Positions 16,108 through 16,477 of a stretch of DNA of 64,000 bases are shown here, piece by piece. The notes under the pieces are model-generated. The model was not told the DNA's origin. It was given only the letters and a program-made list of their open reading frames with translations, and did no database searches. Location: the NCBI RefSeq assembly GCF_013122565.1, contig NZ_CP053258.1; one strand, written 5' to 3'. A program made the translations under genes and the position numbers. Every line of letters starts with the position of its first letter. Position 1 is the stretch's first letter. Source of the stretch: Escherichia coli (lineage in GTDB: Bacteria > Pseudomonadota > Gammaproteobacteria > Enterobacterales > Enterobacteriaceae).

Positions 16108-16477
16108 ATACACCACGAAAAAATTGGATATCAAAAATAAAATGACAATAATGCGGTGGATTATATAGGCATAAAAGATAAATGAGATAGTATTTTCATC
16201 AGTGTGAAAATGAACATTGATTTAAATAATAGGTTTGGTTTTGTTGTTTTTATTGTGAATGATATTTAATTTATGAATATATTAAGAAGAAGCCTTGTCC
16301 GGTCGCCTTAAATCGACAAAAGGCATTGTGGCGCTTCTGTGTAGTCTCTGACCTTATCTTAATCATTAATAAATACTATTTATTCTTTATTTGTATTCAT
16401 TGGGTTGATTATTAAGATGCCGTTCGTTGCTGTTGTAACCTGTTTGTCACCGTTAATTATTTGTTATCCACAGAGAT
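16108..16477. promoter_or_regulatory. AT-rich divergent intergenic region, presumed promoters for the lipid operon and yghO
   Basis: About 340 bp of strongly AT-rich sequence with many TATAAT-like hexamers between divergent genes; no specific site assigned. Confidence 0.4.

Follow-up and report, generated by a model that had tools for sequence, protein, structure and literature searches.

A sphingolipid gene cluster has been described in Escherichia coli BL21(DE3), in which ECD_02850 corresponds to yghO/aca, ECD_02851 to aasR, ECD_02852 to epi, ECD_02853 to acpR and ECD_02854 to spt, and the AasR, AcpR and Spt proteins of E. coli B have been characterised biochemically (PMC9386255). That study, which treats the clusters of Caulobacter crescentus and BL21(DE3), covers the enzymes and reports nothing on the promoter region or its regulation. 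We analysed a stretch of 64,000 nucleotides from an E. coli genome (hereafter the window; contig NZ_CP053258.1) in which a long AT-rich spacer separates aasR from yghO and the surrounding genes are those described as ECD_02850 to ECD_02854, in identical order and orientation. The locus as such is therefore already known, as a published sphingolipid cluster, and it is the control region that is undescribed.

Curvature and helically phased A-tracts are a classical, although not an obligatory, feature of regions bound by the nucleoid protein H-NS. More generally, high A/T content, TpA steps and a narrow minor groove have been linked to H-NS binding (PMC9765446). The regions closest in kind to the aasR-yghO spacer are those of proU, of bgl and of the H-NS/StpA-repressed loci of strain CFT073 (PMC9765446), with which it shares about 70% A+T over several hundred base pairs, enrichment in TpA and a position over promoters, as well as low laboratory expression of the genes beside it and the presence of H-NS/StpA elsewhere in the same operon. 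It differs from them in having neither curvature nor phasing nor a high-affinity motif, in that its neighbours have normal GC and are not listed as H-NS-bound, and in that the locus was not recently acquired; moreover, H-NS on the spacer itself is only a prediction. Our preferred reading, to which we give a probability of about 0.6, is that the spacer is the shared control region of the sphingolipid (dihydroceramide) cluster and carries two weak divergent promoters, with H-NS/StpA probably adding to low expression.

Position and base composition of the spacer

The spacer, its two neighbours and the acyl carrier protein gene of the same operon are located as follows:

16108..16477, no strand assigned: AT-rich aasR-yghO intergenic spacer, 370 bp, GC 0.30
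14386..16107, minus strand: aasR, fatty acyl-AMP ligase / specialised acyl-ACP synthetase (NCBIfam NF006624, start conservation, PMC9386255)
16478..17620, plus strand: yghO, homologue of the Caulobacter acyl-CoA N-acyltransferase (aca / ceramide synthase; PMC9386255, legend of Fig. 9)
13195..13443, minus strand: acpR, acyl carrier protein, GC 0.41, same operon as aasR

An earlier note on this DNA had described a divergent control region of 340 bp, and the region is indeed non-coding and flanked by divergent genes, but it measures 370 bp, and the shorter figure fits only with TTG 16134 as the start of aasR. Among the matches listed, no E. coli genome carries a RefSeq annotation over the spacer. 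The note had also called it far more AT-rich than its flanks, which windowed GC confirmed: GC is 0.300, while the window as a whole has 0.515 and the two genes beside the spacer 0.50-0.53; just 0.23% of all 370-bp windows are as low, and the lowest 200-bp window within the spacer falls to 0.25. TpA steps occur at 10.3 per 100 bp against 4.3 window-wide (2.4-fold enrichment), and by A/T content and TpA steps the spacer is the strongest H-NS candidate within its 15-kb neighbourhood. The AT-rich domain extends from about 16090 to 16550 and thus enters the 5' coding ends of both aasR and yghO, while an island of normal GC (16293-16350, 58 bp, GC 0.52) divides the spacer into blocks of 24% and 29% GC.

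Equally AT-rich intergenic gaps are found elsewhere in the window at 2896-3186, 5428-5600 and 56770-56915 (GC 0.29-0.30), such that, with the aasR-yghO spacer included, four of about 30 gaps are this AT-rich. The first and the last of these three have a GC of about 0.29, and the first lies, judging by its position, probably upstream of pitB. The second is the divergent yghT-yghS spacer (173 bp, GC 0.30), whose neighbours, both of normal GC, figure among the genes reported as H-NS/StpA-bound in CFT073, and it constitutes a useful positive comparator. Like the aasR-yghO spacer it is divergent, has a GC of 0.30 and the same TpA density, and is surrounded by genes of normal GC; unlike it, it is only half as long, and its short flanking genes appear in the CFT073 list of H-NS/StpA-bound genes whereas aasR and yghO do not.

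The aasR gene is the first of the operon aasR-epi-acpR-spt, and its product (573 codons) matches NCBIfam NF006624 at 874 bits against a cut-off of 600. Its ATG at 16107, in the context GACAT, is kept across genera, while PGAP places the start at 16074, and GTG 16116 and TTG 16134 are alternative in-frame starts; where the former lies, Citrobacter amalonaticus, Hafnia and Pseudocitrobacter have an ATG. For yghO the annotated start is ATG 16478, but the start conserved in other genera, which reads ATG ATT and has AAGG as Shine-Dalgarno sequence ahead of it, corresponds in the alignment to ATG 16496, and the 18 nt in between (16478-16495) are variable within Escherichia. Both start codons are thus slightly uncertain (16074-16134 for aasR, 16478-16496 for yghO).

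Further family matches were obtained for Spt (NF047599, 535 bits), the acyl carrier protein (Pfam PP-binding) and the epimerase/dehydratase (Pfam Epimerase), while YghO matched no Pfam or NCBIfam family at an E-value of 1e-5. In K-12, YghO bears the product name "putative DNA-binding transcriptional regulator", which seems wrong; in the literature the protein is considered homologous to the N-acyltransferase (ceramide synthase) of Caulobacter, and it was also included in a screen in K-12 that sought new protein acetyltransferases. In the RefSeq annotation of close relatives, the genes for Spt, an acyl carrier protein, an NAD-dependent epimerase/dehydratase and a fatty acyl-AMP ligase follow each other on one strand with yghO on the opposite one, and farther out LptF/LptG-like permeases and yghQRST lie to the left and glcC to the right.

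Distribution of the locus and its loss from K-12

The spacer was found (at least 80% coverage) in 4136 of 5426 complete E. coli genomes (about 76%), mostly at 95-99% identity. As it is single-copy in each genome, a repeated element could be ruled out. Relatives of yghO in species-representative genomes defined 44 loci, in 43 of which aasR is divergent to it, usually with epi, acpR and spt behind. These 43 loci come from about 20 genera and include Escherichia species and clades, Citrobacter, Shimwellia, Pluralibacter, Serratia, Erwinia, Pantoea, Hafnia, Rahnella, Rosenbergiella and even Pseudomonas. In all 43 the two genes are separated by a spacer of 270-1095 nt (median 619) with a GC content 7 to 27 points under that of the flanking genes, indicating that a spacer of this kind is ancient and conserved in the cluster and does not mark a recent foreign insertion. 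Coding GC at the locus is 0.50-0.55 with the exception of acpR (0.41). The term "xenogeneic", which the earlier note had applied by way of the silencers presumed to bind here, is therefore inappropriate, as genes of normal GC that are present in about 76% of E. coli, in sister species and in some 20 genera do not represent a recent acquisition.

In K-12 MG1655 the region is interrupted by a large deletion:

8219..16517, no strand assigned: segment missing from K-12 MG1655, with IS5 (insH9) in its place; homology ends at 16518 and resumes at 8218

This loss of 8.3 kb comprises part of yghQ, a hypothetical gene, a ytfJ-like gene, lptF/G-like genes, spt, acpR, epi and aasR, and in addition the complete spacer together with 40 nt at the start of yghO. 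Datasets on H-NS from K-12 are consequently uninformative on the spacer. The deletion is also the simplest reason why the pathway was overlooked, and it accounts for this better than the silencing that had been proposed as the explanation for an unnoticed product. To call the product unnoticed is also out of date, the enzymes of E. coli B having already been characterised. The reading frame of the remaining K-12 "yghO" continues into IS5. A second, independent insertion-sequence event at the locus is seen in strain 2022CK-00450 (NZ_CP104681.1, 810484-814667), where IS1 lies inside yghO.

The IS5 of K-12, at window position 16518, sits at the edge of the AT-rich tract, and IS5 has been reported to favour AT-rich, destabilised and H-NS-bound DNA (PMC11677980). 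Compared to the target regions of that study, the K-12 element likewise abuts an AT-rich tract, but it represents one historical insertion accompanied by an 8.3-kb deletion, which is circumstantial and not a measured hotspot.

Expression of the locus in BL21(DE3)

When Spt alone was over-expressed in BL21(DE3) in complex medium at 30 degrees C (the E. coli Spt included), the lipid profile equalled that of the empty vector, and 3-oxo-sphinganine was obtained only if plasmids provided AasR and AcpR in addition (PMC9386255). The chromosomal copies of aasR and acpR hence give no detectable activity, which fits an aasR operon that is weakly expressed or silent in BL21. Once 3-oxo-sphinganine was made, however, BL21 showed compounds migrating like sphinganine and ceramide, for which, according to the authors, chromosomal ECD_02852 (epi) and ECD_02850 (yghO) may be responsible (PMC9386255), and the silence of the locus may thus be incomplete. 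The earlier suggestion that the locus is silent in the laboratory therefore agrees with the undetectable activity of chromosomal AasR and AcpR in BL21, but less well with epi and yghO, which are possibly active, and the cause of the low activity is not identified in PMC9386255. In the searchable literature we found no report of a wild-type E. coli making sphingolipids, and searches under the BL21/REL606 locus tags, under c3710-c3716 of CFT073, in a comparative-genomics paper on UPEC and in a paper on the phosphosphingolipids of Caulobacter returned nothing on expression of the locus or on H-NS. Likewise, the gene names searched for did not occur in the supplements of an hns transcriptome paper on EAEC 042, and the CRP ChIP table of ETEC H10407 has no site near the locus.

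H-NS and StpA

The profile of an H-NS/StpA binding site, as the earlier note had drawn it, rested in part on many phased A/T tracts. We counted nine tracts of at least four A or T in the spacer, which does not exceed the 8.4 +/- 2.0 obtained in dinucleotide shuffles, and there is no periodicity of 10-11.5 bp, AA/TT power being below the shuffle mean and equalled by 66% of the shuffles. Curvature in a wedge model is average, with a mean of 3.53 degrees per turn in the spacer and 3.46 window-wide, although two local peaks of about 9 degrees are located near 16125 and 16185. The high-affinity H-NS motif of the Lang type (consensus TCGATAAATT) has no match better than 8/10 in the spacer; within two mismatches it occurs there once, and 67 times window-wide against 63 expected, i.e. 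it is not enriched. What holds of the proposed profile is thus the A/T content and the TpA steps, whereas phasing, exceptional curvature and a Lang-type motif do not.

Strain CFT073 carries the locus, with the spacer at NC_004431.1 3544845-3545221, and its H-NS and StpA occupancy has been determined by ChIP-seq, with scoring deliberately confined to coding regions and 798 genes listed as H-NS-bound (PMC9765446). Three genes alone between kpsM and c3752 are on this list, namely c3714, yghS and yghT. The first (249 nt) has an H-NS occupancy of 0.22 and a StpA occupancy of 0.19, both of which are lost in an hns deletion, and yghS and yghT have H-NS occupancies of 0.14 and 0.21, respectively (PMC9765446). 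By its length and by gene order we take c3714 as acpR. The signal over yghS and yghT is probably caused by spill-over from their 173-bp spacer of 30% GC. In contrast, aasR, epi, spt and yghO are missing from the 798 genes, a list that scores coding regions, and this argues against an H-NS filament over the whole locus. A similar spill-over averaged over the full length of yghO (1143 nt) or aasR (1722 nt) would come close to the lowest listed occupancy of about 0.09, so that the missing aasR and yghO argue only weakly against an H-NS patch that is strong or spreads. Taken for the spacer itself, involvement of H-NS is plausible from its composition.

The more far-reaching version originally put forward, in which phased and curved A-tracts nucleate H-NS/StpA and spreading from there silences the whole lipid locus, so that its product was overlooked, appears possible but doubtful to us. 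It draws on the AT-rich, TpA-enriched spacer, on H-NS/StpA over c3714 (taken as acpR), yghS and yghT in CFT073, on the lack of chromosomal AasR/AcpR activity in BL21, and on the position of the K-12 IS5 at the edge of the tract given the reported preference of this element for H-NS-bound DNA. It conflicts, however, with the A-tracts, which are neither phased nor in excess, with the average mean curvature and the lack of a Lang motif, with coding GC of 0.50-0.55 and the position of aasR, epi, spt and yghO outside the H-NS-bound list, and with the age and wide distribution of a locus whose obscurity is explained by the K-12 deletion and whose enzymes are already published. Under the preferred reading, by comparison, the spacer with its 70% A+T and many TpA steps would be a good substrate for H-NS/StpA, which would probably contribute to low laboratory expression as a local patch over the promoters and not as a filament along the whole locus.

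Sequence constraint and predicted promoters

An alignment of seven Escherichia lineages (the window, ATCC 8739, CFT073, two further Escherichia species, E. whittamii and a divergent "E. coli"), to which the ST131 allele was added later, resolved the spacer into three blocks:

16108..16232, minus strand: near-invariant aasR-proximal block, 125 bp, divergence 0.053; predicted aasR core promoter and leader
16233..16355, no strand assigned: fast-evolving middle block including the normal-GC island, divergence 0.208
16356..16477, no strand assigned: yghO-proximal block, mean pairwise divergence 0.150

Compared to the mean pairwise divergence at third codon positions in the seven lineages (0.17 in aasR, 0.13 in yghO), the first block is about three times more conserved and is the only constrained block of the spacer within Escherichia; only three of the 80 columns adjoining aasR are variable. 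Divergence in the middle and right blocks is close to neutral or higher, with insertions and deletions. Two Escherichia lineages have other sequence in place of the normal-GC island and ST131 has an altered form of it, which means that the island is not a conserved element. Across genera, only about 40 nt beside each start codon can be aligned.

Three promoter-like features were predicted in the spacer:

16160..16165, minus strand: perfect -10 element TATAAT on the aasR strand, invariant in Escherichia, with a poor -35 (ATCTCA) at a 17-bp spacing, score 7.8
16248..16287, no strand assigned: moderately conserved AT-rich block TTTTATTGTGAATGATATTTAATTTATGAATATATTAAGA, containing the best plus-strand promoter-like match and the sole near-match to the H-NS motif
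16391..16418, plus strand: candidate yghO promoter TTGTAT-16-TAAGAT, weak score of 7.6, predicted start at about 16425

From the first, transcription of aasR is predicted to start at about 16153 with a leader of about 46 nt, and the best plus-strand match in the second (TTGTGA-19-TATATT) has a predicted start at about 16290. The best sigma-70 promoter scores (7.8-9.1) equal the background of the window, which amounts to about one match per kb per strand, and since none rises above it we read these as weak promoters that need help. Outside Escherichia, the cross-genus comparison found no clear and consistent retention of the -10 position.

In the arrangement that we favour, a leftward promoter would serve the aasR-epi-acpR-spt operon and a rightward one yghO. 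Function would be concentrated in the 125 bp beside aasR, where the invariant TATAAT is paired with its poor -35; the aasR promoter would accordingly be weak, would probably need an activator or a specific signal and would be followed by a short, unstructured leader, while the remainder of the spacer would be fast-evolving AT-rich DNA. Promoter positions, dependence on an activator and occupancy of the spacer by H-NS are all inferred here from sequence and comparison.

The restriction of constraint to the left block could also be read in another way, namely that these are ordinary divergent promoters governed solely by at least one specific transcription factor that recognises the invariant 125 bp, with an AT-richness that is simply the usual composition of promoters and with H-NS immaterial. 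We regard this as rather unlikely, although it is in agreement with the four in about 30 gaps of the window that are equally AT-rich and with a CFT073 list of H-NS-bound genes from which the flanking aasR and yghO are missing. A candidate operator in the same spacer of other genera would also suit it: the exact palindrome GAATAA-N5-TTATTC is present about 90 nt upstream of aasR in loci of Serratia and in Klebsiella indica. Set against it are the failure of all 29 consensus motifs searched in the spacer to beat chance after correction for multiple tests, and the H-NS found within the operon, just 2.7 kb from the spacer, on DNA that is less AT-rich.

The palindrome occurs in spacers of 718-806 nt, in the Serratia marcescens group (several Serratia species) and in Klebsiella indica, for example at 3357-3373 of locus L013, 2208-2224 of L015 and 3271-3287 of L022 and in other Serratia loci. 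Looser versions are seen in Tatumella, Pantoea and Cedecea, whereas Escherichia is without it, and it is a candidate operator of these other genera.

A bolder extension, which we consider unlikely, would make the 125-bp block the operator and promoter of a dedicated switch, at which an activator or counter-silencer would act against local H-NS/StpA and turn on ceramide synthesis under a particular host or environmental signal.

At the other extreme, the spacer might be mostly neutral filler, non-coding DNA that has drifted to A+T and in which only the translation-initiation regions at both ends are functional. The middle and right blocks, which diverge at or above the rate of third codon positions and contain indels, the unconserved GC island and the failure to find an RNA family, a stable leader structure or a conserved small ORF would suit such a view, but the constrained left block extends far past any ribosome-binding site at about one third of the third-codon-position divergence, and a long spacer has been retained in 43 loci of about 20 genera, which makes this improbable.

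Other elements sought in the spacer

When 29 consensus motifs for transcription and sigma factors were compared to dinucleotide shuffles, none was significant after correction, the best being that for ArcA:

16452..16466, plus strand: ArcA-box-like GTTAATTATTTGTTA, 13/15 matches to GTTAATTAAATGTTA

Control of yghO by ArcA, and hence by redox state, is highly improbable. A 13/15 match is equalled by only 1% of shuffles (nominal p about 0.01), which speaks for it, but this is one hit among 29 motifs, with about 0.3 expected by chance, and the site lies only 12-26 nt upstream of the annotated yghO ATG and has lost its first half-site in three of the seven Escherichia lineages.

A scan of 15900-16700 against Rfam with E-values up to 1 returned no RNA family, no terminators were found in the region, and the predicted leaders of aasR and yghO fold no more stably than shuffled sequences (z-scores of -1.1, +0.25 and +0.66). 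Given that neither an Rfam match nor an unusually stable fold was obtained, a structured RNA leader, a riboswitch or an sRNA was rejected. Small ORFs within the spacer have only 21-32 aa, and none is conserved across genera.

Implications for ceramide synthesis in E. coli

The full gene set for ceramide synthesis, which laboratory K-12 has lost, is carried by some three quarters of the E. coli genomes that are complete. Should the spacer be what holds these genes silent in culture, conditions or mutations that activate the pathway would best be sought there, for example an absent activator or the combined mutation of hns and stpA, and if a dedicated switch did exist, its signal would reveal when a bacterium thought to be free of sphingolipids makes them. 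As a sequence feature the spacer is probably an ordinary AT-rich, weak divergent promoter region of a familiar kind, and its value lies in giving practical access to a pathway that is known but uncharacterised, rather than in a new mechanism.

A separate observation concerns the spt gene of the window (12107-13195, minus strand), which differs from the genes encoding the 390-aa Spt of ATCC 8739 and CFT073 by an in-frame deletion of 84 bp with its junction at about 13088/13089. The deletion takes out residues 39-66 approximately (RIGNKKVILAGTNNYLGLTFNHDAISEG), and the NCBIfam match begins at profile position 66. The lost residues include an NNYLGL motif that we take to be conserved in the enzyme family. 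Spt may be inactive in the strain of the window, in which case the pathway would be broken there however it is regulated; the extra 84 bp are present in all 12 best-matching complete genomes.
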